From an uncultured virus (IMG/VR IMGVR_UViG_3300000558_000068) (taxonomy: Duplodnaviria; Heunggongvirae; Uroviricota; Caudoviricetes), in the IMG/VR virus record IMGVR_UViG_3300000558_000068, positions 1 through 64,000 of that record: 64,000 nucleotides of DNA. One strand, given 5' to 3'. Within the stretch, counting starts at the first letter, position 1; the number at the start of each line of letters is the position of its first letter. The notes beneath the pieces are model-generated. The model was not told the DNA's origin. It saw only the letters and a program-made list of their open reading frames with translations, and ran no database searches. This document shows positions 37,760-62,017 of this stretch, in pieces. The translations under genes were made by a program, and so were the position numbers.

Positions 37760-40117
37760 TTAGTTAATAATTGATTTGTAGAATTCTGCACGATCTCTTG
37801 TTACTTTTTCGAGATTATATTTTGGTGTTATATCCTCATGTAATTTTTCAGCCATATCGGTCACAAATGAAGGATTGTCGATTAATAGTTTTAGGTATTT
37901 AAACCACAACTTATGATTTTTAATACTTGGGACTAATAAAGCATTTCCATCTTTAGTAAAATGCCCGTCTACGTAAGCGTTTTTAAGATCAATTGTATAG
38001 GGGCCGAAATCCTGTGCAATTAATGCTTTTTTATGAAACGCGGCCTCCACGCATTTTAGTTGGGAATTGTGATTAATAATACCGTTGGCATTATACATAT
38101 GTACACTATCAACTTCAATATCATATACTGTATTAATAGTGTTTTCGATTGTCTTTATACTATCAGTGAATGTTTGTGGGATAAAATGATTACTTCTTTT
38201 ACCGCTTATCATTTTGTATAAATGATCACATTTGTGTTGTGAAATAAAACCAATTTCATTGTAAAATATTTCGCAACCTTCTCTATGTAAATCAAGCCGA
38301 TAATAATATTTTCGATAGTGTTTATTGTATGAATATCTGATAAAACCTTGTATTCCAAAACCCAATAACAAAGTTTGTATTTGTTTAATCAATTTCAAAT
38401 CTTTACTGGTTAAACTAACTGGGCTATGCTCGCCAACAGTTCCATCCGATTCAAATAATCCGCGTAAAAACTCTCTAATTACACTTTTAGGAGACTCTAA
38501 TATTACTTTTGGGACCCTAAATGTTTTACCATGACTTCCACACCAGCCATATTTTTTAGCAATTGATAAAAAATTAATACAAGTTGAACAAATACTAACT
38601 CCAAATCCTTCTTTAGCTAAACTATTTGAACATCTCTTATCTGGTTTTTTGTCACGCACTAATGGATTTAATCCAATCGATTTGTAAAGGCTTACAATAT
38701 CTTCAACAACATTAGTATGTCGTTTATCACACGTAATTGATATGCTATTACCGTTATAATTTCCATCGCCTAACATATATCCTAACAATCTTCCCCAGTT
38801 TTCATTTATTCGAATTCTAGGTAACATATTTTCGTCCGAATTATTAATTTTTTCCTGAGTTATATTTTTAGTTAATAACATTGGATATGTAATTTCCTGA
38901 TATTCGGTTTGCGAAAATATTGGGCGGGTAAGTTTAATTTTATCCCCAATTTTTAAATCTTGTAATTGTACCCATTCATTGTTAATAAAAATTTGATGGT
39001 GAGGAGTCCCTTCAATTTCATATCCATCGTTCATTGTAATTTTAATTGTTGGAACGTTTTCATATTTAAAGTGGTTTACTATTTCATTAAATTTCCCATC
39101 TATTTCAGTTTGTAAAGATAATTTTTGGTCAACAATGTCGCTTATGTGTTTAAATCCCTTATTGGTTGATATTAATGAGTCACCAACAATACATTTTACT
39201 AGATTAAACGTATGCTCTTTTAACGGAGCTAATGAAATGTCAAATAAATTATAGTTCTTAGCATATGTTGTAACAGGTTTTGTCCAAATTCTACGATAAG
39301 GTTGTCCTTCGTCAGCGTAAGGTTCTTTTGAGTATTCCTGAAGATGTTTTATGTAATCCTGATCAGATATTATTTTATAGTTATCAGTAAAAATTCGTTC
39401 ATATTTAACCCATATTGTTTCGTGAGGTTGAATTTTACGTTTCTTTCTTTCTTTTGTCTTTGGATTAAATTCGGTTATTTCCCCACGAATGTCAAAACCA
39501 CAAACAACAAATTGAGTTTTTTTATCATAACCAACAGCGTGAAGTTGATTAATTGCTCCGCTAATTATTTCTAAATCAGCGAGATGAGAACTCCCACCGA
39601 GGAACCCCACACGAACTCTATCTGTTTGTTTTGGTAAGTTTTCAGGTATAAATTGTCTTTCAGTTGGATCAATAGCATTTGGAATAACAACAACATTTTT
39701 ATTAAACTTAGAAATTTCACCAGCAAATATTGGCGTGGTTGTCATTACATAATCCGGTAAAGATAAATTACCTGATATTTTTTTATCTAAACCCTCACCT
39801 ACGATTAATTGATATGCCGGATGATCCATTGTTGGTTTCCAGTAATCATCAATATCCATGATTGTTTTAACGCCCAATTTACGAAGTTGTCCCATGCGCC
39901 GTTCCATCTGTTCATAAGGACCAAATGTACGGTGAAAATGTATTATTTGGTATTTCTTTAAAAAATCTTCATTATCAATATTGGGTTTATAATCAATGTC
40001 AATATGGAAATCATCAGGAAACAATTGTTCTAGCTTAATATGCGGACCAACACTGCGAAAATTTGCTACTCCAGTTCTATCGCTGCAGATTACTAATACG
40101 TTAATTTTACCACTCAT
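37760..40117 (-). CDS. GT-B/GT4-like glycosyltransferase containing an intein
   Basis: MDIDDYW, VIPNAID, GGSSH..DL, DISLAPL...FN..K|S.LK..EA. Confidence 0.85.
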   Translation of the reverse strand: MSGKINVLVICSDRTGVANFRSVGPHIKLEQLFPDDFHIDIDYKPNIDNEDFLKKYQIIHFHRTFGPYEQMERRMGQLRKLGVKTIMDIDDYWKPTMDHPAYQLIVGEGLDKKISGNLSLPDYVMTTTPIFAGEISKFNKNVVVIPNAIDPTERQFIPENLPKQTDRVRVGFLGGSSHLADLEIISGAINQLHAVGYDKKTQFVVCGFDIRGEITEFNPKTKERKKRKIQPHETIWVKYERIFTDNYKIISDQDYIKHLQEYSKEPYADEGQPYRRIWTKPVTTYAKNYNLFDISLAPLKEHTFNLVKCIVGDSLISTNKGFKHISDIVDQKLSLQTEIDGKFNEIVNHFKYENVPTIKITMNDGYEIEGTPHHQIFINNEWVQLQDLKIGDKIKLTRPIFSQTEYQEITYPMLLTKNITQEKINNSDENMLPRIRINENWGRLLGYMLGDGNYNGNSISITCDKRHTNVVEDIVSLYKSIGLNPLVRDKKPDKRCSNSLAKEGFGVSICSTCINFLSIAKKYGWCGSHGKTFRVPKVILESPKSVIREFLRGLFESDGTVGEHSPVSLTSKDLKLIKQIQTLLLGFGIQGFIRYSYNKHYRKYYYRLDLHREGCEIFYNEIGFISQHKCDHLYKMISGKRSNHFIPQTFTDSIKTIENTINTVYDIEVDSVHMYNANGIINHNSQLKCVEAAFHKKALIAQDFGPYTIDLKNAYVDGHFTKDGNALLVPSIKNHKLWFKYLKLLIDNPSFVTDMAEKLHEDITPKYNLEKVTRDRAEFYKSIIN
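38066..39193 (-). mobile_element. Intein with LAGLIDADG homing endonuclease (376 aa)
   Basis: Starts CIVGDS; block B GTPHH; LLGYMLGDG and FLRGLFESDG; VYDIEV...HN followed by Ser+1. Confidence 0.93.
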
Positions 40118-44109: not shown

Positions 44110-46971
44110 TCATTCGTTTGCATTATTAATTACAGCCAGCACATCATCAAAATCCGGTAAACTAACGTCTTCGATGTCTTCCAACTGTTTTATAATATTA
44201 CCATCAAGTTTTCGATAATATTTGTTCCAAAATGTATATTCTTTTGCTTCGGGGTTTATTAAATCTTCTGTGTAATCATCCTGATCTCCCGGATTGAGGG
44301 GAAATCCATTAACGAGATCACATTCACTTAACGTAAATAATTTTCTTTCGCTTGGTTCTTTAATTATAATATCGGCACGAACTTCAGGTTTAAATATGAT
44401 TAAGAATAACTTAATTTTTTTGTTTAATGCTGCTATTGCTCTTGGTACATTATACGACCCTCTCAATTCTGGATTCTTTTTGAGATCCTCCGTGTCGATT
44501 AAATATGAATTGGGGCGATCGGGACCATTCTTTTCTTTTTTATGTGTACCACAGTCGCCATGAGAAGCTTTTGTTGCATCATTAACATAATATACAACAT
44601 CGCCCAAATTTGCTTGTCTATCTTCTTGTATGAGTAATTCCATGTGGGTTAATTGAGGAAGTTTACCACCATTAATGTTTGTAGTTTTCGAGCGCTTTTT
44701 ATAATCGGCAATCGTGTGTTTTACTTTCGATTTGTTAGCGATTTTAAGTAGTGGAATTTCTTTTTTATGAATTGTGTCGATATAGTCATAGTACAATTGT
44801 ATCCAACATTGACCTTTTTCGGATTTATTAATATCAGGGTCCAGTAATAGATTAAACGACATTGTGATGAATTCTTCGATATATGTTGGAGTTGTTTTGG
44901 ATTTAATTGAGTTGCCGATCATTTTTATTTTAAATTTTCCGTCCTTACCTTTGAATAATCCAGCATAGTTTTTTCGTGCTAAATTAATACTGGTTTCCCA
45001 TATTTCATCAATATCCAATGCCATAACACCACGCATATATAAATCATTAAATTCTGCAACGTGAGCCTCAATACCTTTATATATTTTATCTTTTTCTGTT
45101 TTCCAATTTAAGCCTTTACCTACATATTCATAGTTGGTATCAGCATTGGCAAATGAGAAATTAATTCCATCGGTGTCTAGTAAAATCGGAATAAATCTAC
45201 GTTCAGTAAAATAACTAGCCATTAATCTTAGATAATTTCTACCACGGCATGTTACTTCTTCACCCTTGTCCATTTCGCTCCATGGGAATACGTTGGGAGC
45301 ACATAAAGAGCCATATTGTGAGTTATTTAAGATTTTTATTGGTAATTGCTTTCTATCAAACATGGTGGCTAATTGAGTATTTCCTTCTTTTTCGGCTTTT
45401 TTACCTTCAGCTTTACATTCAGTTCTTGTTGTATGAAAGAAACGAAGCATTTTATCCATAGCTTGAGAAATATCACAATTTGGATATATACCATGAGTAA
45501 TTTGAATCGATGGATAAAGAGATGCGAAGTCGAGTTTAACAATTTTCTCGCTGTATCCAACTTTTAGTAATCTTGATAAGCCGCCAGTGTAATCTCGTCT
45601 TTCTTCAAATGACGGTATTGATAGTTTATTCTCATAACTCCAAGCCATCATTAACATTTTCCACAGTCCAGCAGTTCCCATCGTTGATACCCGGTGAAAT
45701 GTTGCCGGAAGAATGGTGGCCATAAGATATGATGCCTGATTATACTGAGCATCAACCTGAAGTGTTTCCCATAAATCATCCATCAAATATCGTTTAACAA
45801 TATATTGACCATTGACTTTTTTATAAACTTTAGGGAATTTTATATCCAAATCGGTTAGGTCCGGATTTTCTTCACATAAACGATATTGCCCATTTTTATT
45901 ATTAAACCAGAAATTTTTATTCTCGAAATGAAGTTTCCATATATTAGATCCATCAGGAATATATACACGATCAGGTTTTGTTATCTTTGAAAATTTACAG
46001 ATATATTTTAATCCCGCAGATTTTATTTCTGAGTTAATGGCTTGTGCTCTTCTTACAGCATGAATAATATCAACAACATTTAACCCCCATATTACAGTTT
46101 GCTCGTAATATTCAACCTCATTGGCCAACTTTAATGACGATTCTTTACGTTTAAATGGGTTTTTATTACTTAACGTTTTAACCACATCTTTAATATCAGA
46201 GCCAAGATGCTTTAGGCGCTCAATAATAAAGAAAAAGTCAAAATTTTCTGAATTATACCCAGCAATTATTGATGGTTTTAATTCATTTAAATCATTAGCC
46301 CAATCCAATATAAGCTTTAATTCAGCTGCGTCATCATTTTCTTTTTCAACAACATATAATTTTTCGAAACCTTGAGTTGTTTTAGCTCCAATCATAAAAA
46401 CACGATTTGTTGCTGGATTTAAGCCCGTTGTTTCAATATCAAATATGTATCTATGAACTTGATCATAATTGGCGAAACCTTTAAATAATCTTTTACCAGT
46501 GTGTACAAGATATTGCTCAACTGGTGGTAAATATTGAAAATGATCTTTATCTTTATGGGCGTCCAGACCACCATCTTTGAAAAAATTTAACAAATCATTC
46601 CATGTGTTTGAAGATGAAACTAAATATTTATATCCAGAGTCATTTCTAATTTCCCCCATGGTATTTAACGGCTCAACGGTAATGCCATATTTAACCATTT
46701 TTTTGTTAATCATTTTTTTGTCACCCTTATAGAATCCTGTTTCATGTAATGCTTTTGTCCATAAAAAGGGTTTTAACTGGGTTTGTTTCATTGATAATTT
46801 ACCAGTTTCTGGATCTTGAAATATTAATACGATCGTGTTTGTGGGATAATCGTATTCAATATTAATAATTCCTTGCGTTGGATCTCTTCCGTAAAGGAAA
46901 GCTTCCATTTCCGGGTCTTTGTACATTGTTGACATCATACAACGGTTTAATTTTAGTTTATATTTTGGCAT
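44110..46971 (-). CDS. Family B DNA polymerase
   Basis: Exo DIETTG, GYNSENFD; pol DFASLYPS, KILNNSQYG, DTDG, KNYA. Confidence 0.95.
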   Translation of the reverse strand: MPKYKLKLNRCMMSTMYKDPEMEAFLYGRDPTQGIINIEYDYPTNTIVLIFQDPETGKLSMKQTQLKPFLWTKALHETGFYKGDKKMINKKMVKYGITVEPLNTMGEIRNDSGYKYLVSSSNTWNDLLNFFKDGGLDAHKDKDHFQYLPPVEQYLVHTGKRLFKGFANYDQVHRYIFDIETTGLNPATNRVFMIGAKTTQGFEKLYVVEKENDDAAELKLILDWANDLNELKPSIIAGYNSENFDFFFIIERLKHLGSDIKDVVKTLSNKNPFKRKESSLKLANEVEYYEQTVIWGLNVVDIIHAVRRAQAINSEIKSAGLKYICKFSKITKPDRVYIPDGSNIWKLHFENKNFWFNNKNGQYRLCEENPDLTDLDIKFPKVYKKVNGQYIVKRYLMDDLWETLQVDAQYNQASYLMATILPATFHRVSTMGTAGLWKMLMMAWSYENKLSIPSFEERRDYTGGLSRLLKVGYSEKIVKLDFASLYPSIQITHGIYPNCDISQAMDKMLRFFHTTRTECKAEGKKAEKEGNTQLATMFDRKQLPIKILNNSQYGSLCAPNVFPWSEMDKGEEVTCRGRNYLRLMASYFTERRFIPILLDTDGINFSFANADTNYEYVGKGLNWKTEKDKIYKGIEAHVAEFNDLYMRGVMALDIDEIWETSINLARKNYAGLFKGKDGKFKIKMIGNSIKSKTTPTYIEEFITMSFNLLLDPDINKSEKGQCWIQLYYDYIDTIHKKEIPLLKIANKSKVKHTIADYKKRSKTTNINGGKLPQLTHMELLIQEDRQANLGDVVYYVNDATKASHGDCGTHKKEKNGPDRPNSYLIDTEDLKKNPELRGSYNVPRAIAALNKKIKLFLIIFKPEVRADIIIKEPSERKLFTLSECDLVNGFPLNPGDQDDYTEDLINPEAKEYTFWNKYYRKLDGNIIKQLEDIEDVSLPDFDDVLAVINNANE

Positions 46972-50386: not shown

Positions 50387-50438
50387 AAATAGCTGAATAG
50401 TTATTAAAATACCAGACTATTTATTAAAAAATCGAATC

Positions 50439-52058
50439 ATGCGTCAGGAAATTATTAAAAACATATTAGACGAAAAAAAACGCAAAAAGAAAAAAAATAA
50501 GAAAATGAAACCAATCGGAAAGATATACTCGTTTATGCCAGTATTCTCCGACCCAACAATTGGAACGCCTGAAGGTATGGAAGAAGGTTTAAATTTACGC
50601 AAAAAACCACTAACCACACCAAAGTATTATTTTAAAATTTTTATCTGTAAAGAATGGGTTGAAGATGATTATAAAAGTGATTGTAACGATGGACATTTTC
50701 AGCTCGTAGAAATACCTAAAACCGAAATTAAATGGGAATCAGATTTAGATGCGGACGATGTTTATAATAGGGACGAGGCTATCCAAGTAATTTATTGGTG
50801 TTTAGACAATAAAATAATTCCTGATGATTGGTTTGATAAAGTTGATTATGTTGAAGAACTATCTGAGCTCGAATATATAAAAAATAAAGGTGATAAGGAA
50901 TCAGAGTTGGATGAAGAAGGTGGGGGATTAAGTGATACATTAGGACAAAATGATCTTCCACAAGTTCCAAAATGGGAATCCGGAATTACTCGTGGACATG
51001 CAAACCCTATTGATTTTAAAAAACCATGGGAATCCGGAATTACTCGTGGACACGCAAATAGTTTGTTCGAAGGATTAAATTTACCAAAAAAACCGCAACT
51101 AAAAACTTTTGATATTTACGATGTGGACACCGGAAATGTTATAATGAAAGTAACCAGAGCCGAATTGGACTATTTAATGGATGATAATTGGGTTTGGTAT
51201 GATGGGCGTAATTATGTAACGTTTAATGATAGTTTTCAATTAAATCAACAAATTGGCGTATATAAATCTAGTTTGTTCGAAGGGTTAAATTTAGTTAAGA
51301 AGCCAAAGAATCCAATATTTGATTATTTAGATCTCGCTATTGTTGATATTCGAAAAGACAACGCGCCAAATTTAGGAAAAAATATATTTCGTTTATATTC
51401 GGACAAGACCAATAAAAATATGGTTTTCAAAATAATTGTATATCCGTCTGGTAACGTAAAGATTCTTCAATACCGGTTTAGTTTTTTGGGGGATATAGCT
51501 ATTAGATTTAATGTTGATAGAGACAATTTTGATATTATATTTGATGAATGGTTTAAAAGTAGACATGGGGATAAAATTATTAATGAGGGAATAAATTTAC
51601 CAAAGAAAATAAGTGGAAAACAAACCAGATTTCCGGATAACTTACGTGATGCCATTGTTTCAGATGGTACTATGAATGATGACCATTTAATACCAAAATT
51701 TTTAGCTTATTTAAATAATTATGAATGGATCCCTAATTATCAAAAGCAAGTTGACGAAGCAAATGAAATATGGGAAAGAATACAATACAACGAAGAAAAT
51801 GATATTGCGATGGATTTAATTTACGAAGAAAAATCAGAGTTAACTAACGATTTATTTGAATTGATGATAGAATTGTCCCCAGTTGGAACATCATTTGGTT
51901 CATCTTTTGGCGATGGGGCTTGTTATGGATTTTGGGATTATTATAATAAAGAGTGCCCGGAATGTAATACTGAAATGGAGGACATTGATTATGAAAACGT
52001 AACTGGGTTTTGTCCGAATTGTAACGCCACTTTTGAAATGGGAACAATGGATTATTAA
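50439..52058 (+). CDS. Modular polyprotein-like protein with four EG(L/I)NL.K linkers
   Basis: Linkers at 50583, 51069, 51279, 51585; WESGITRGHAN x2; C-terminal CPEC...CPNC zinc ribbon. Confidence 0.7.
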   Translation: MRQEIIKNILDEKKRKKKKNKKMKPIGKIYSFMPVFSDPTIGTPEGMEEGLNLRKKPLTTPKYYFKIFICKEWVEDDYKSDCNDGHFQLVEIPKTEIKWESDLDADDVYNRDEAIQVIYWCLDNKIIPDDWFDKVDYVEELSELEYIKNKGDKESELDEEGGGLSDTLGQNDLPQVPKWESGITRGHANPIDFKKPWESGITRGHANSLFEGLNLPKKPQLKTFDIYDVDTGNVIMKVTRAELDYLMDDNWVWYDGRNYVTFNDSFQLNQQIGVYKSSLFEGLNLVKKPKNPIFDYLDLAIVDIRKDNAPNLGKNIFRLYSDKTNKNMVFKIIVYPSGNVKILQYRFSFLGDIAIRFNVDRDNFDIIFDEWFKSRHGDKIINEGINLPKKISGKQTRFPDNLRDAIVSDGTMNDDHLIPKFLAYLNNYEWIPNYQKQVDEANEIWERIQYNEENDIAMDLIYEEKSELTNDLFELMIELSPVGTSFGSSFGDGACYGFWDYYNKECPECNTEMEDIDYENVTGFCPNCNATFEMGTMDY

Positions 52059-52086
52059 TTGAGCATATTTATAGTAAAAGATTATT

Positions 52087-53187
52087 ATGATACAAATATT
52101 ACCGGCAGAAAGAGAACGGCTTTACAAAAAAGTACTCCATCGACTTGGTGCTCCTGTTAGAGCAATTGAACTTGAATCAGAACAAATGGATTCTTTGTTG
52201 GAGTTGTCTGTTGAAGATTATTCTGAAATTTTAAATAACTGGTTAACCGAATCACAATGGGGATCATTAGCTAATTTAGATTTGGATATGCAAGACTTTC
52301 AAACCAAATTAATGACAAGAGATCTAAATTTTGTCCGACAGTTCACATATGCATATTCTAAGCAGGTTGGATTAAATGCTAGTGGCACATATGAGCTGAA
52401 AAAAGATTATATTACATTGGTGAGAGGTCAACAAGCATATTCAATTCCAGCAAACCGCGAAATTAATGAAGTTTTATGGTTTACCCCTCCAACACTAGAT
52501 CAGTCAATTGTGGATCCATTTTTGGGTATGTGGGGATTTGAGTTTGGCGGTATGGGTACAGCGCAAGTGGGTATGGGGGCTTATTATGTTGCTCCGACAT
52601 TTGATATTCTATTAAGGATGCAGGATCGAAACATTAAAAATAGAATTCTTCGTTCCGAATTCATATATAAACTTACCGGTGGACCGAATGGAACAAAAAT
52701 ATTACACTTATTAAATGTTCCCGGAGGAAAATATGACTTTACAAGCTCGCATTTTTATCGCGGTAAAGTTTGGTACATGTATTATGACACGGCAGATAGA
52801 AACAGGGATGAGTGTCTAGCTGAAAATAAAGATATAATTAGATTGCCAAGCGATGTTCCTTTACATAATATAGATTACGCCGATTTAAATGACCAATCGA
52901 AAACATGGGTGCGTAGATATTTTACAGCATTAATGAAAGAAACACTAGGAAGAACCCGTGGTAAATTCTCCGGAAAGTTAAAAATACCTGATGATGAACT
53001 AACATTGGATTATGAAAGTTTATTAAGTGAAAGTAAATCCGAAATTGATGATCTAAAAGAAGAACTACTAAACCGATTAGAAAGGATGAGAAATGAAGTA
53101 ATGTTAAAACGAAAAGCCGAAGAAGGTGAAAGTCTAAACAAAGCTTTAAGTTATATTCCATTTAAAAACCCATATAACGTTATTTAA
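52087..53187 (+). CDS. Neck/adaptor protein, T4 gp13-like
   Basis: LHRLGAPVRAIELE.EQ; WVRRY..ALMKE.LG..RGKF. Confidence 0.8.
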   Translation: MIQILPAERERLYKKVLHRLGAPVRAIELESEQMDSLLELSVEDYSEILNNWLTESQWGSLANLDLDMQDFQTKLMTRDLNFVRQFTYAYSKQVGLNASGTYELKKDYITLVRGQQAYSIPANREINEVLWFTPPTLDQSIVDPFLGMWGFEFGGMGTAQVGMGAYYVAPTFDILLRMQDRNIKNRILRSEFIYKLTGGPNGTKILHLLNVPGGKYDFTSSHFYRGKVWYMYYDTADRNRDECLAENKDIIRLPSDVPLHNIDYADLNDQSKTWVRRYFTALMKETLGRTRGKFSGKLKIPDDELTLDYESLLSESKSEIDDLKEELLNRLERMRNEVMLKRKAEEGESLNKALSYIPFKNPYNVI

Positions 53188-58553: not shown

Positions 58554-61454
58554 TTATTTTTTTAATTTCTGAATAACACTTTTAAATATATCATCGTCTA
58601 AATTTGAATCCCCCATTACTTGATCAATAACTTTAATTTTCTTCATAAGTGCGTGATATAGATGGAGATCCAGAGTTTCTGATACTATGTTATAATACAC
58701 GTTTACCACCTTTTTAGTTCCAATACGATAACACCTATCTTGTGCTTGAAGATGATCTGCCGGCAACCAAGATAAATCATTAAAGACAACCAATTCGGCC
58801 GCTGTTAATGTAATACCAACACCTGCAGATATAATATTACCAATAAATACCTTAACATTGGGATCGTTTTGGAATCGTTCGATAGATTCCTCACGATTAT
58901 TTTTTGACATTGGCCCGTGGTGTATAACTGACATTTTACCGAAATGATTGTGTAATTGTAATAGAGGCTCAGTGAAATTGGTAAAGATAACAACCTTTTT
59001 ACCTTCTTCTATTGCGTTTTCAACGATTTCAATGGTAAATTCAACTTTAGATAGAGCTAAAAATTGACGTAATTTAACTAATTGTGACAAATGAAGAGCG
59101 AGATTTACAGTTTTTTGATGATCAGCCCATGTTTGATATTCCCCAACAATTTTTTGGTATTCTTCCTTACATTGTAATGGGAGATAAATGGGCTGTACAA
59201 TCTTTTCTGGTAGATCTAATATATCTTCTTTTCTTCGTCTTAAAATAACATCTTGGGTACAATTATGCAATTCTTCTAAATTACTAGCACCTTTGGTATC
59301 CCATATTTTCCTCCCACCCCTACCATAAAATTGTTTACCAGCACAATACCGGATAACATAGCCCATCCAACTACGGGCCAGACGATGTTTACATAAGGCT
59401 AATAAATTATACAAATCAATTGGCCGATTAGTAACTGGCGTCCCAGTCAATAACCATACACGTTTAATGTTTTTGGATAAATCATTAAATATTTTAGCGC
59501 GCTGGCTTTGTTGGTTTTTTGTATAGTGGCAATTACTAACCAAAATGTTATTAGCAAAATAATTATGATTGTCGTTTATTTCGAGATTATAAACTGTTGT
59601 ATTTTTTGAGCCACCAGATTTGGGTCTTGATCTACTTCTTTGTTCCAAAACCTCAACACTTTCCACCCTAACGCATTTAACACTTCCGTTTTGCGATGAT
59701 CCAAAAATTTCCATTTTTTCATTTTGTGGGTATTTCCATCGATTTCGATTGATATTTTTAATTCGGGATGAGCAATATCTGGCGAATAATGGAAGGGTAA
59801 AGAAGGAAACTGGTCGAAGACTTCTTTTGTTTTTATTGGAAACTCTAACATCCATCGATGATCCATCTGAAATAGTATATCGTATATTATTTTTTGTTGT
59901 TTGGTTATCTGACCGTTTCCACCACGAGATAAAAATGTTCGGCCTTTCATTTTTTCCGTCATTTTTTCTTTCACGCCCGGTTTTGACATTAGCGGATCGT
60001 TTTTTAATCGGTCTGATAATTGTTGTATTAATTCTGGCCTTTTTTGAAAAGTCAATTTGTGTGTAATTGATGACTTTTGATAAACTGTTTCGTTGTGTAT
60101 CTTTGCAAATTTCTCTGGCTGTCTCATTGTCCCTTTTGCTGAACAAGATCGACAACAAAATCGTCTTTTGTCTGACGGTTTTTTTGTAAATTCGATTCCA
60201 CATTCTTGACAAATTTGTATAATTCGTGGCCTTTTTCTTTTTAATGTGTTTGATATTCGTATATTCACTTCCTGATCTCTGGATGAGCAAAGAATCGAAC
60301 AGTGTTTGCTTTTGTTGTATTTTTGCCGCTTGGTTAATTCCTTCTGACAAACCAAACAATGTGTCGTTTGGTTTAATTTTATTTGCTTTGACATATCCTT
60401 CATTTTTAATAAATATTTTATGGTTTGGTGTGCATTCGATAATTAATCCGTTATTTGTTTTTATTTTTAATAGTCTGTTGCTTGTTTCATTTTTTATCCA
60501 TCTAATGATTTTTTTATGCTCTAATTTATTTGTTTTTAAATTATAACTTAATATTTGTACATTCAAATTATTTTCAACAATGTCACCTATTTTCATTTGC
60601 CCGAATTCGGTTGTTACTAAAGTATTATATGTAAAACACTCATCCCCAATAATTATATCAAAATTTTCATCTACTATTGTCGTAATTAATAACTGATCTT
60701 TTTTTCTTTTATCCGGAACTGTATGGAAATTTTTAAGAATATCATAATTAACTATTGTCCATTTCCCGCCCGATATCCATTCACTTCCATTAATGATATT
60801 AATTTGCCGTGTAGATTCTAACATTTCGATTTCTTTTTTCCAGTTTAATTTTAACGATGCTGGGCACACAATTAATATCTTTTCTGATTTAGACTCTATC
60901 GATGCAACAATTGATTCATAGCTTTTTCCTAACCCGCAATCGTCAGCTAATATAAACCTATCATTCTCTAATAACTTAATAATACCTTCAATTTGATATT
61001 TATATGGTTTTCTTTCATAGTTATCCCAATGGTCTTCCGAGAATTCTATTTTATTTATTGCTTTGGGTTTAATTATTGAATGTTTTGGTATCCACAAGTC
61101 CACACATTTATCATCTTCCCAAATCTTTCCCCATATATGAATAGCCTTATCTGTATTTGATAATAGTTTTTGAATGTATATCTTGGTTGGTTTCTCTACA
61201 CATAAAAATTTCTTTTGTAATTCTTCTCCACAATAACCATCAATATTGTACCACTTATTAATTCCTATTACTTTCTTATCATAATTCTTAACAACGTATT
61301 CAGATATTTTTCGCCCAAATGTAGTTTCACCATTAAGAACCCGGTTTTTTAATATAAGCAAGAAATTGTTATTACCACTATAATCTTTTAAAATGGTAAT
61401 AGCACGTTTTTCAACTGGCTGGTATTTTAGCTCGTTAATTTGACTTTCATCCAT
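58554..61454 (-). CDS. SNF2/SWI2-like helicase containing an intein (start ATG 61454)
   Basis: Q motif YQ, ADDCGLGKS, VCPASL, DE|CH, LTGTP, GVGITLTAA, QAQDRCYRIG. Confidence 0.92.
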   Translation of the reverse strand: MDESQINELKYQPVEKRAITILKDYSGNNNFLLILKNRVLNGETTFGRKISEYVVKNYDKKVIGINKWYNIDGYCGEELQKKFLCVEKPTKIYIQKLLSNTDKAIHIWGKIWEDDKCVDLWIPKHSIIKPKAINKIEFSEDHWDNYERKPYKYQIEGIIKLLENDRFILADDCGLGKSYESIVASIESKSEKILIVCPASLKLNWKKEIEMLESTRQINIINGSEWISGGKWTIVNYDILKNFHTVPDKRKKDQLLITTIVDENFDIIIGDECFTYNTLVTTEFGQMKIGDIVENNLNVQILSYNLKTNKLEHKKIIRWIKNETSNRLLKIKTNNGLIIECTPNHKIFIKNEGYVKANKIKPNDTLFGLSEGINQAAKIQQKQTLFDSLLIQRSGSEYTNIKHIKKKKATNYTNLSRMWNRIYKKTVRQKTILLSILFSKRDNETAREICKDTQRNSLSKVINYTQIDFSKKARINTTIIRPIKKRSANVKTGRERKNDGKNERPNIFISWWKRSDNQTTKNNIRYTISDGSSMDVRVSNKNKRSLRPVSFFTLPLFARYCSSRIKNINRNRWKYPQNEKMEIFGSSQNGSVKCVRVESVEVLEQRSRSRPKSGGSKNTTVYNLEINDNHNYFANNILVSNCHYTKNQQSQRAKIFNDLSKNIKRVWLLTGTPVTNRPIDLYNLLALCKHRLARSWMGYVIRYCAGKQFYGRGGRKIWDTKGASNLEELHNCTQDVILRRRKEDILDLPEKIVQPIYLPLQCKEEYQKIVGEYQTWADHQKTVNLALHLSQLVKLRQFLALSKVEFTIEIVENAIEEGKKVVIFTNFTEPLLQLHNHFGKMSVIHHGPMSKNNREESIERFQNDPNVKVFIGNIISAGVGITLTAAELVVFNDLSWLPADHLQAQDRCYRIGTKKVVNVYYNIVSETLDLHLYHALMKKIKVIDQVMGDSNLDDDIFKSVIQKLKK
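59532..60638 (-). mobile_element. Intein (369 aa) in the helicase Walker B (DE^CH)
   Basis: CFTYNT start, block B CTPNH, VYNLEI..NHNYFAN.ILVSN end, Cys+1. Confidence 0.92.
59576..60403 (-). CDS. Zinc-finger + DUF559/Vsr-like endonuclease nested in the +1 frame of the intein
   Basis: CLVC..CSILC, CQEC..CCRSC; PDIA...IEIDG..H...D..K...L..LGWKVLRFWN. Confidence 0.85.
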   Translation of the reverse strand: MKDMSKQIKLNQTTHCLVCQKELTKRQKYNKSKHCSILCSSRDQEVNIRISNTLKRKRPRIIQICQECGIEFTKKPSDKRRFCCRSCSAKGTMRQPEKFAKIHNETVYQKSSITHKLTFQKRPELIQQLSDRLKNDPLMSKPGVKEKMTEKMKGRTFLSRGGNGQITKQQKIIYDILFQMDHRWMLEFPIKTKEVFDQFPSLPFHYSPDIAHPELKISIEIDGNTHKMKKWKFLDHRKTEVLNALGWKVLRFWNKEVDQDPNLVAQKIQQFIISK

Positions 61455-61498
61455 ACAAAATAAATATAATTGACGGATATTTATTGTAAAGATTAAAA

Positions 61499-62017
61499 AT
61501 GAGTCAAAACATTGTGCCAATAAACAGAAATTCGAAATTCTACGGACTAAATGACATGCAAACAGAGATAAACATGGGTAGGGAATATATCGAGGGTGAC
61601 ATAGATTTTCGTGTTGTCTTATACCGGGTTGATCATGAAAAAACAAACACGGACGATTTATATGGTGAAGTTGAAGCCTATCAAATAAAATATAAATCAC
61701 CAATAGAATTAAGTTGCTCAGTATCGTTAAAACCAAAACAAAATAAACAATATGGGACTAACGCATCACTAATTAGAGAAGAATGGGGTAATCTTGAATT
61801 TAACGTGTATGAAGAACAATTAAAAGAACTTGATATTGAGATTAATAAAGGAGACTACGTTGGATATCCTGTCCGCGAGAATTTTTTTAAGTATTTTAGC
61901 GTGGTTGATAATGATAAGGTTAATGATGACACAACCAGATTATTGGGATTGAAAAAAGGGTTCTATCGTCATATCGTGTGTACACCAACAGATAACAGCG
62001 AATTTATGGTTAATTAA
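61499..62017 (+). CDS. Head closure/neck protein, T4 gp14-like
   Basis: VVLYRVD...DDLYGE; LKELDIEINKGDYV; structural context. Confidence 0.6.
   Translation: MSQNIVPINRNSKFYGLNDMQTEINMGREYIEGDIDFRVVLYRVDHEKTNTDDLYGEVEAYQIKYKSPIELSCSVSLKPKQNKQYGTNASLIREEWGNLEFNVYEEQLKELDIEINKGDYVGYPVRENFFKYFSVVDNDKVNDDTTRLLGLKKGFYRHIVCTPTDNSEFMVN

Follow-up and report, generated by a model that had tools for sequence, protein, structure and literature searches.

Does the intein that interrupts a helicase gene of an uncultured virus carry, within the same DNA, a complete second protein in another reading frame? The question is raised by a 64,000-nt stretch (positions 1 to 64,000 of IMG/VR virus record IMGVR_UViG_3300000558_000068, Caudoviricetes; hereafter the window), on whose minus strand the coding sequence (CDS) of an SNF2-family helicase (58554..61454) contains an intein (59532..60638), and the intein in turn an open reading frame (ORF) for a DUF559/Vsr-like nuclease shifted by one base (59576..60403). 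The original prediction for this locus, made from the letters alone, read it as a contiguous intein with a separate endonuclease gene overprinted in the +1 frame, and this core reading was supported by the conserved layout, by selection on the nuclease frame, by the predicted folds of both products and by indel-free contigs. The explanation that we consider highly probable is a composite selfish element, in which a class-1 mini-intein sits in the Walker B box (motif II) of its host protein and a complete EDxHD/Vsr-like (DUF559) gene is overprinted in +1 between its two splicing lobes.

Two reading frames in one intein

The helicase frame is open over 58554..61736 on the minus strand, on which all features of the element lie, and from an M-D-E-S-Q start it encodes a precursor of 966 aa, intein included, which equals database protein P0104 and matches the Pfam families SNF2-rel_dom, Helicase_C and Intein_splicing. 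Translation and alignment to intein-less homologues placed the end of the N-extein (60639..61454) at the D-E of motif II and the start of the C-extein (58554..59531) at the C-H of the same motif, with the intein inserted between them. Translation, Pfam and alignment agree on an intein of 369 aa, which runs without a stop from C-F-T-Y-N, with Cys1, to V-S-N and is followed by the C-H that supplies Cys+1. The residues by which an intein is recognized are all present, namely Cys or Ser at position 1, T-x-x-H in block B (here T70-P-N-H73), a terminal Asn and Cys, Ser or Thr at +1. Among 45 aligned inteins C1, H73 and N369 were invariant, and T70 was kept in at least 90%. Pfam Intein_splicing (PF14890) matched the intein frame at 1e-13 (51.8 bits against a cut-off of 35.8), the match being split between residues 14 to ~110 and the C-terminus, with the middle unmatched.

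An AlphaFold model built from 45 aligned sequences reproduced this division, as the predicted local confidence score (pLDDT) exceeded 90 only for residues 1–100 and 320–369 and was 36–60 between them. The N-terminal splicing lobe (residues 1–100; 60339..60638) had values of 90–97 and resembled mini-inteins in Foldseek, and the C-terminal lobe (residues 320–369; 59532..59681), which holds blocks F and G and the invariant N369, contained strands at 320–332 and 348–369 with values of about 95. When the lobes were searched with Foldseek, the best match was the splicing domain of Mtu RecA (2in0, E 1.5e-7), 66 matches were found at E ≤ 0.001, and the matches listed were mostly inteins. Between the lobes lies a K/R/S/E-rich linker (intein residues ~101–319; 59682..60338) with no domain and with predicted disorder. 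As only the two ends are modelled confidently and are intein-like, the helicase frame is predicted to encode a class-1 mini-intein of the HINT fold with a disordered linker of ~215 aa. The kept splicing residues, and a helicase that would otherwise be broken in motif II, suggest that the intein is removed by protein splicing.

In the +1 frame, an ORF of 275 aa from its first ATG begins 235 nt into the intein and terminates (at 59576) 44 nt short of the end of the intein. Its assignment as a nested homing-endonuclease gene draws on the ORF itself, the DUF559 domain, 100 homologues and the predicted fold. Two Cys4 zinc-finger-like modules, presumed to bind DNA, occupy residues 16–39 and 65–87 (60143..60358); C65, C68, C83 and C87 were invariant in 37 homologues, and PHROG 1271 matched residues 11–95. 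The nuclease domain proper (residues 206–272; 59588..59788) matched Pfam DUF559 (PF04480) at 5.8e-14 (52.3 bits against a cut-off of 20.6). Residues D209, E220, D222, H226, D235 and K238 were invariant in the 37 homologues and are all present in the window; E220, D222, H226 and D235 would correspond, as read from the alignment rather than from a structural superposition, to the published E, D, H, D catalytic motif of EDxHD nucleases. A structure model calculated from the alignment of the 37 homologues had a mean pLDDT of 91.6. The DUF559 protein 3hrl was matched by sequence (E 1.5e-6) and again by Foldseek (TM-score 0.81), the homing endonuclease I-Bth0305I (3r3p) was matched by Foldseek with a TM-score of 0.77–0.78 over the target, a probability of 1.00 and E 1.2e-3, and Vsr itself (1cw0, 1vsr) was matched more weakly. 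On this model, the closest solved structure to the nuclease domain is that of I-Bth0305I. Running Pfam on both frames thus returned Intein_splicing for the helicase frame and DUF559 for the +1 product. The intein boundaries, the open intein frame with its K/R/S-rich centre devoid of domains, and the 275-aa +1 protein with two Cys4 motifs and a DUF559/Vsr-like nuclease had all been proposed in the original prediction, and each was recovered here.

About 65 nt at the start of the nuclease gene and about 106 nt at its end fall within the splicing lobes, and at either end the overlap clearly has a function in each frame. At 59642..59672, intein residues 323–332 (V-R-V-E-S-V-E-V-L-E; 59643..59672) and nuclease residues 245–254 (L-G-W-K-V-L-R-F-W-N; 59642..59671) are read from the same DNA one base apart, as had been noticed before. 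This stretch, which holds an intein beta-strand and the nuclease motif G-W-x-V-L-R-F-W-N, forms a strand in both models and is conserved in both frames.

The original prediction had held that two long open frames on one strand were unlikely to arise by chance. For this comparison the nuclease protein was kept fixed, its synonymous codons were redrawn in 20,000 trials per scheme, and stops in the helicase frame were counted. Recoding with the codon usage of the window gave a mean of 25.4 helicase-frame stops, and permutation of the gene's own codons a mean of 12.9; the natural sequence has none, and its third frame has 25. As a stop-free helicase frame was never reproduced (0 of 20,000 recodings in either scheme), chance is ruled out as the reason why this frame is open.

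Conservation of the layout and selection on the two frames

The same layout was found well beyond the window. A blastn search with the helicase gene gave no match in GenBank phages, and a tblastn search of GenBank phages reached 40 records, 37 of them Vibrio phages, at 25–28% identity. In each of the three Vibrio phage records that were opened (CP-T1, K391 and 104E43.1) the nuclease lay in +1 of a long open CDS. These three isolate records (L001, NC_019457.1; L002, OZ196571.1; L003, MW824411.1) give the gene no other annotation than 'putative helicase', 'DNA helicase' or 'hypothetical protein', and mark neither the intein nor the nested nuclease; among the records listed by tblastn, the features under the match are likewise of these kinds only.

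A profile search of viral contigs yielded 312 relatives, of which the best 80 were analysed. In 79 of these 80 the nuclease occupied the +1 frame of a spanning same-strand ORF, and in none was it in +2 or in frame with the host, so that the scan of phages for nested DUF559 ORFs proposed in the original prediction returned the same arrangement almost without exception. The one remaining locus, L012, is truncated at the end of its contig, and the nuclease frame of L029, which appeared broken, is explained by a stop upstream of its real start. One of the 79, L021, is a true exception, with both frames disrupted by a deletion. Among 43 full-length relatives in bacterial and archaeal genomes, 35 had the +1 layout and 8 did not; two of the 35 sit on contigs already included among the viral loci. 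The junctions of the 35 read D-E followed by C-F at one side and H/S-N followed by C/S at the other. As a control, 37 loci of bacterial genomes that matched the DUF559 domain alone (L129–L165) were inspected, and these were not nested, except L130. A further candidate relative, L004, which was the one locus obtained when viral contigs were searched with a single protein, was set aside, as it matches only the zinc-finger region (residues 44–114) inside a 1341-aa ORF and not DUF559. In the overlap of 73 non-redundant sequences not one helicase-frame stop was present, and the third frame of the same DNA contained a mean of 21.8, with a minimum of 5. Homologues with stops in one of the two frames, which the original prediction had named as counterevidence, were therefore absent from these 73 as far as the helicase frame is concerned.

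These data bear on the simplest alternative, that the endonuclease is truly in frame and that two compensating indel errors of sequencing or assembly shifted it. The metagenomic origin of the virus record would allow for such errors, and the single-contig database proteins P0102 and P0098 do switch frame within the overlap. An indel check on reads had been proposed for this purpose; it was carried out here on Logan contigs, in which 59300..60900 was recovered from 4 public runs with 0 differences and 0 gaps, both overlap ends being covered, this evidence consisting of contigs, not raw reads, from 3 samples of 1 study, with one run possibly the source of the record. The absence of gaps in these contigs, the recurrence of the +1 relation in the viral, genome and isolate loci, the absence of any in-frame version among the 80 + 43 loci, and the recoding result, by which an unread helicase frame would not stay open, leave the artefact effectively refuted, and we give it a negligible probability.

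The hosts of the element were classified by running Pfam on 83 spanning ORFs. Of these, 64 carried superfamily 2 (SF2) helicase domains, 10 clamp-loader domains (DNA_pol3_delta2 with AAA), and 9 no extein family at the thresholds used, and Intein_splicing was reported in 63 of the 83. The junction motifs were recognized by pattern in 67 of 74 non-redundant sequences, and the other seven were checked visually. The D-E of Walker B was the insertion point in all host classes, including the clamp-loader-like AAA+ hosts with DNA_pol3_delta2 (L048–L050, L055, L062, L067, L069, L076, L078 and L083). The occurrence of the same +1 nested nuclease in helicases and in clamp-loader-like ATPases, which share a D-E-x-H box, suggests that the element crossed between two host families.

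To which of the two overlapping proteins selection applies was read from substitutions counted by helicase-frame codon position in 11 pairs of related loci, whose membership overlaps. At positions 1/2/3 the N-extein had 828/635/1388 substitutions, the intein N part 72/62/190, the intein C part 17/6/44 and the C-extein 725/476/1548. In the overlap the counts were 842/430/436, with the peak at the first helicase-frame position, which is the third position of nuclease codons. This peak points to purifying selection on the nuclease protein inside the overlap. Moreover, for the same DNA in the 73 sequences the mean pairwise amino acid identity was 38% in the nuclease frame vs 21% in the helicase frame. 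The helicase frame thus appears to be constrained mainly to stay open, except at the two ends that encode parts of the lobes.

A role of its own for the basic disordered linker, such as DNA tethering or conditional control of splicing, would be compatible with the composite element. It would agree with the K/R/S/E-richness of the linker and with an overlap that is partly functional in both frames, at the ~65 nt and ~106 nt lying within the lobes. We consider such a role unlikely, in view of the low helicase-frame identity, the low pLDDT of the linker and the concentration of substitutions at the first helicase-frame codon position; the composition of the linker may just follow from the nuclease codons.

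Probable expression of the nested nuclease

If the overprinted gene is translated separately from the helicase, as the composite element supposes, its start should be recognizable in relatives. In a comparison of start sites in which 27 loci were listed, the nuclease frame of seven close relatives (L005, L009, L010, L012, L031, L033 and L036) was closed by a stop only four codons ahead of an ATG that is conserved and corresponds to the second one of the window (Met4, at 60394). Several other relatives had a nuclease-frame stop 0–3 codons before their first ATG. The likely start in the window is accordingly the conserved second ATG, which would give a protein of 272 aa. With the stop only four codons away from the ATG, ribosomes could hardly enter by frameshifting, which suggests that initiation is independent, and internal initiation is favoured over frameshifting as the probable route to the nuclease.

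Programmed +1 ribosomal frameshifting, which would yield the endonuclease fused to the N-extein and the intein N lobe, is the alternative that these starts address. The invariable +1 relation would be expected from it, no stop interrupts the +1 frame over the 13 codons that precede the first ATG of the window, and several relatives have a much longer open stretch there. The stops just upstream of the ATG, four codons away in the seven close relatives and 0–3 codons away in several others, the conservation of an ATG at the head of the homologous region, and the lack of a known slippery site, though none was searched for, make frameshifting most unlikely.

With respect to signals for independent initiation, a Shine-Dalgarno core was found within 20 nt of the start in only 2 of 49 long ORFs of the window. 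Since such cores are few and leaders are A/T-rich throughout, an A/T-rich leader seems to be normal for this phage, the nuclease ATG included. Before that ATG the only Shine-Dalgarno-like sequence found was A-A-G-G-A, one base before the second ATG and too close to count. A candidate expression signal does end on the second ATG, and consists of the motif TATTTATWRWAAA followed by 8 nt and ATG (60392..60415, minus strand). Where 0.03 exact matches of this arrangement were expected in the window, 4 were found, and the other three (50418..50441, 52066..52089 and 61478..61501, all on the plus strand) coincide with the starts of ORFs 50439, 52087 and 61499. The motif may be a phage promoter or a translation signal; the sequence does not tell which. 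Looser copies of TATTTATWRWAAA cluster in the intergenic region at 47.8–48.0 kb. A scan for sigma-70-type promoters gave 9 matches, fewer than the mean of 13.4 for shuffled sequence, and was set aside. On the reading preferred here the nuclease would be translated separately, and its dose would be uncoupled from the host protein.

Probable mobility, related systems and significance

Pairs of related loci offer a view of how the element spreads. Between L009 and L012 the N-exteins differed at 271 of 807 sites and the overlaps at 47 of 789, and between L033 and L036 the corresponding differences were 122 of 831 and 21 of 807. Divergence is therefore far lower between the inteins than between their host genes, which is probably a sign of mobility. 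Alleles that could receive the element also exist. The 14 closest non-self homologues of the helicase, with 67–82% identity over the C-extein, comprised 7 without an intein (592–606 aa), 5 with a LAGLIDADG-type intein and 2 with Intein_splicing only, and in an alignment of eight of these homologues the insertion site of the alleles without an intein had the sequence D-E-A-H, D-E-I-H or D-E-C-H.

The nested ORF could instead be a relic, an endonuclease that once drove homing and is now unexpressed or inactive, so that only reading through it matters. Decay after fixation is what the homing cycle predicts, broken alleles exist (L021), and the nuclease ATG has no Shine-Dalgarno sequence. The nuclease ORF of the window is intact, though, with all family-invariant residues kept and a confident nuclease fold; substitutions in the family spare the first and second nuclease codon positions; and the inteins are much more alike than the exteins, with intein-less alleles in circulation. 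A relic is for these reasons very unlikely.

LAGLIDADG inteins also occur in related helicases. In P0105 and P0109 an in-frame LAGLIDADG intein is inserted elsewhere, behind the G-K of Walker A, and L007, L010, L014, L017 and L029 have a LAGLIDADG domain upstream of the nested-nuclease intein and so carry both. The window itself contains a second intein in a 785-aa ORF (37760..40117, minus strand), with Intein_splicing at 5.8e-13 and an in-frame LAGLIDADG_3 domain at 3.5e-18, in agreement with the earlier statement that another intein here has its endonuclease in frame; Pfam at the threshold used named no host protein for this ORF. A family B DNA polymerase is encoded at 44110..46971 of the window, and the source record, an IMG/VR virus fragment of 75,017 nt, has a completeness rating of 23%.

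Relatives of the nuclease also occur outside inteins. Three free-standing ones lie directly upstream of ResIII helicase genes (L107:1558–2205, L116:2818–3462 and L118:2983–3597). In L116 and L118 the helicase (ResIII/Helicase_C) is complete and intein-less and overlaps the 3' end of the nuclease gene by about 40 nt, and in L107 the contig ends 222 aa into the helicase. These three may represent a free-standing stage of the same element. Four further full-length relatives (L094–L097, on Pontibacter, Massilia and Polaromonas contigs) are free-standing without a spanning ORF, and the gene downstream of L094 encodes a ParA-like ATPase. In a neighbour-joining tree of the nucleases, calculated without support values and to be taken as a hint only, those hosted by clamp loaders mostly cluster, and the free-standing ones are scattered over at least four positions among the nested ones. 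Tree and free-standing loci together hint at repeated moves between the free-standing and the nested state, with few switches of host gene.

The composite element would work as follows. Ribosomes in the helicase frame would read straight through the nuclease gene and so produce the disordered basic linker of ~215 aa between the lobes. The two lobes would then fold into a HINT domain and splice out the whole insert, restoring the D-E-C-H box. The nuclease would be translated independently of the helicase from an ATG of its own, most probably that at 60394, either by ribosomes that initiate within the helicase message or from an internal transcript. In a mixed infection it would cut intein-less helicase alleles near the motif II codons, and repair would copy the intein, with the nuclease gene, into the cut allele. 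This scheme starts from what was computed, that is the two open frames, the domain and fold assignments, the conserved layout, the frame-specific selection, the existence of intein-less alleles and the greater similarity of inteins than of host genes; from these we infer splicing, the start and mode of expression of the nuclease, and its cleavage target.

Several points weigh against the composite element or the strength of its evidence. The penultimate residue of the intein is Ser (V-S-N), and the usual His is absent; V-S-N is also found in many close relatives and V-H-N in other members, and active inteins without a penultimate His are known, this residue being usual, not defining. The 13 open codons upstream of the window's first nuclease ATG would allow entry by frameshifting. 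The match statistic of TATTTATWRWAAA is generous because the pattern was chosen after viewing the sequences, and the match at the nuclease could be a by-product of coding because the DNA there must encode the block B region of the intein. The conclusion on selection uses pairs that share members. Some alleles are damaged or mis-assembled: L021 (3001–3734) is identical to L007 apart from a deletion close to the end of the nuclease, by which both frames are broken, and P0102 and P0098 switch between the helicase and the nuclease frame inside the overlap. Near-duplicates make up 10 of the 80 viral loci, and the locus counts are not independent events because related loci share ancestry. In any case, a composite mini-intein with an overprinted endonuclease remains our preferred reading, and the element appears to be real, selected and probably mobile.

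Is the architecture new? The original prediction had called it distinct, and this holds only in part, as out-of-frame intein endonucleases have already been published, and it is the same-strand +1 Vsr-like form that appears to be undescribed. In actinophage inteins, Gosselin, Arsenault and Gogarten (bioRxiv 10.1101/2025.01.02.630785) described antisense LAGLIDADG, antisense VSR-like and frame-3 endonuclease VII-like genes, proposed that they originated by invasion of a mini-intein by a free-standing endonuclease gene, and presented evidence of continued movement; their VSR-like type has an HHpred link to 3R3P. As in the window, these inteins are contiguous, and between their splicing blocks the endonuclease has an ORF to itself, in a different frame or on the other strand. 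The actinophage VSR-like endonuclease is antisense, however, and the only same-strand out-of-frame case there is endonuclease VII-like in frame 3, whereas the Vsr-like gene of the window is on the same strand in +1. The actinophage inteins are housed in genes for DNA polymerase, minor capsid, terminase and thymidylate synthase, and those found here in the Walker B boxes of helicases and clamp loaders in other phages and prophages. In a cyanobacterial dnaX intein, Phillips, DeSimone and Gogarten (bioRxiv 10.64898/2026.09.14.751524) reported an out-of-frame +2 LAGLIDADG gene and proposed secondary invasion of a mini-intein. That overprint is likewise on the same strand, with purifying selection on the endonuclease frame and relaxed selection on the intein frame, but it involves a LAGLIDADG enzyme, the +2 frame and a cellular gene in place of an EDxHD/Vsr-like enzyme, the +1 frame and a phage helicase. 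Both preprints cite Gorbalenya 1998 for inteins with the endonuclease in a different frame or strand, in Gosselin et al. as the first of this kind.

Three further systems share features with the window. In the fractured genes of Dassa, London, Stoddard, Schueler-Furman and Pietrokovski 2009 (PMC2677866), Vsr-like endonuclease genes lie between the halves of split inteins. These too are on the same strand, between intein parts, in phage DNA-metabolism genes, with the 3' end over the coding sequence of the C-terminal intein part. Their host frame ends with a stop, followed by 27–51 nt of non-coding DNA, a new start and an overlap of 6–69 bp, while no such break by a stop and a new start occurs here (0 stops in the window and the 73 relatives). 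With no stop in the host frame, a single precursor is expected, and the whole nuclease gene is overlapped, unlike in fractured genes. I-Bth0305I, described by Taylor et al. 2011 (PMC3239194; PDB 3r3p), is an EDxHD homing endonuclease of a group I intron in recA of phage 0305phi8-36. It has, like the window's nuclease, an N-terminal DNA-binding region followed by a C-terminal nuclease with conserved acidic and histidine residues. It differs in being encoded by an intron and in its NUMOD/helix-turn-helix N-terminus, where the intein-associated nuclease has two Cys4 fingers, and the identity is 22% over the aligned domain. Lastly, Arsenault, Gosselin and Gogarten 2025 (PMC11855218) described hidden HNH inserts of the ShiLan type in phage methylase genes, in which an out-of-frame endonuclease gene likewise lies inside an insertion that is open in the host frame. 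These inserts are without a splicing domain and stay in the host protein, and their nuclease is of the HNH type. A full-text literature search found no paper in which a contiguous intein holds a Vsr-like endonuclease on the same strand in +1, although preprint supplements might list cases. The element is thus known as a kind, and what appears to be undescribed is its same-strand +1 EDxHD form in Walker B inteins, widespread and unannotated.

Intein surveys and annotation pipelines read the host frame alone, and such elements are consequently filed as inteins with a degenerate middle or simply as 'helicase'. A conserved and apparently mobile endonuclease hidden in this way alters how the distribution of inteins, their decay and the homing cycle are read. 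The family offers many natural examples for the model in which an endonuclease gene invades a mini-intein. It is also a well-replicated case of long-term dual coding on one strand (about 830 nt) in phages, and could serve as a benchmark for methods that detect overlapping genes. As potential tools, it provides compact mini-inteins that tolerate a disordered insert of ~215 aa and a set of EDxHD nucleases with presumed targets in helicase motif II.

A wider reading, which we put forward tentatively as possible rather than probable, is that the window samples a large, old and nearly unannotated lineage of Walker B inteins in SF2 helicases and clamp-loader ATPases, with the EDxHD gene always in +1. 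It is suggested by the invariance of the frame relation in more than 110 loci, by the dual function of both overlap ends and by the free-standing relatives (L107, L116 and L118) upstream of helicase genes that are intein-less where complete. If true, the lineage would provide a natural series of free-standing homing-endonuclease genes fusing with, and escaping from, mini-inteins. The overprint could then also act as a throttle, in that ribosomes translating the helicase frame would hinder initiation at the nuclease start, and the dose of nuclease would fall as translation of the host gene rises.

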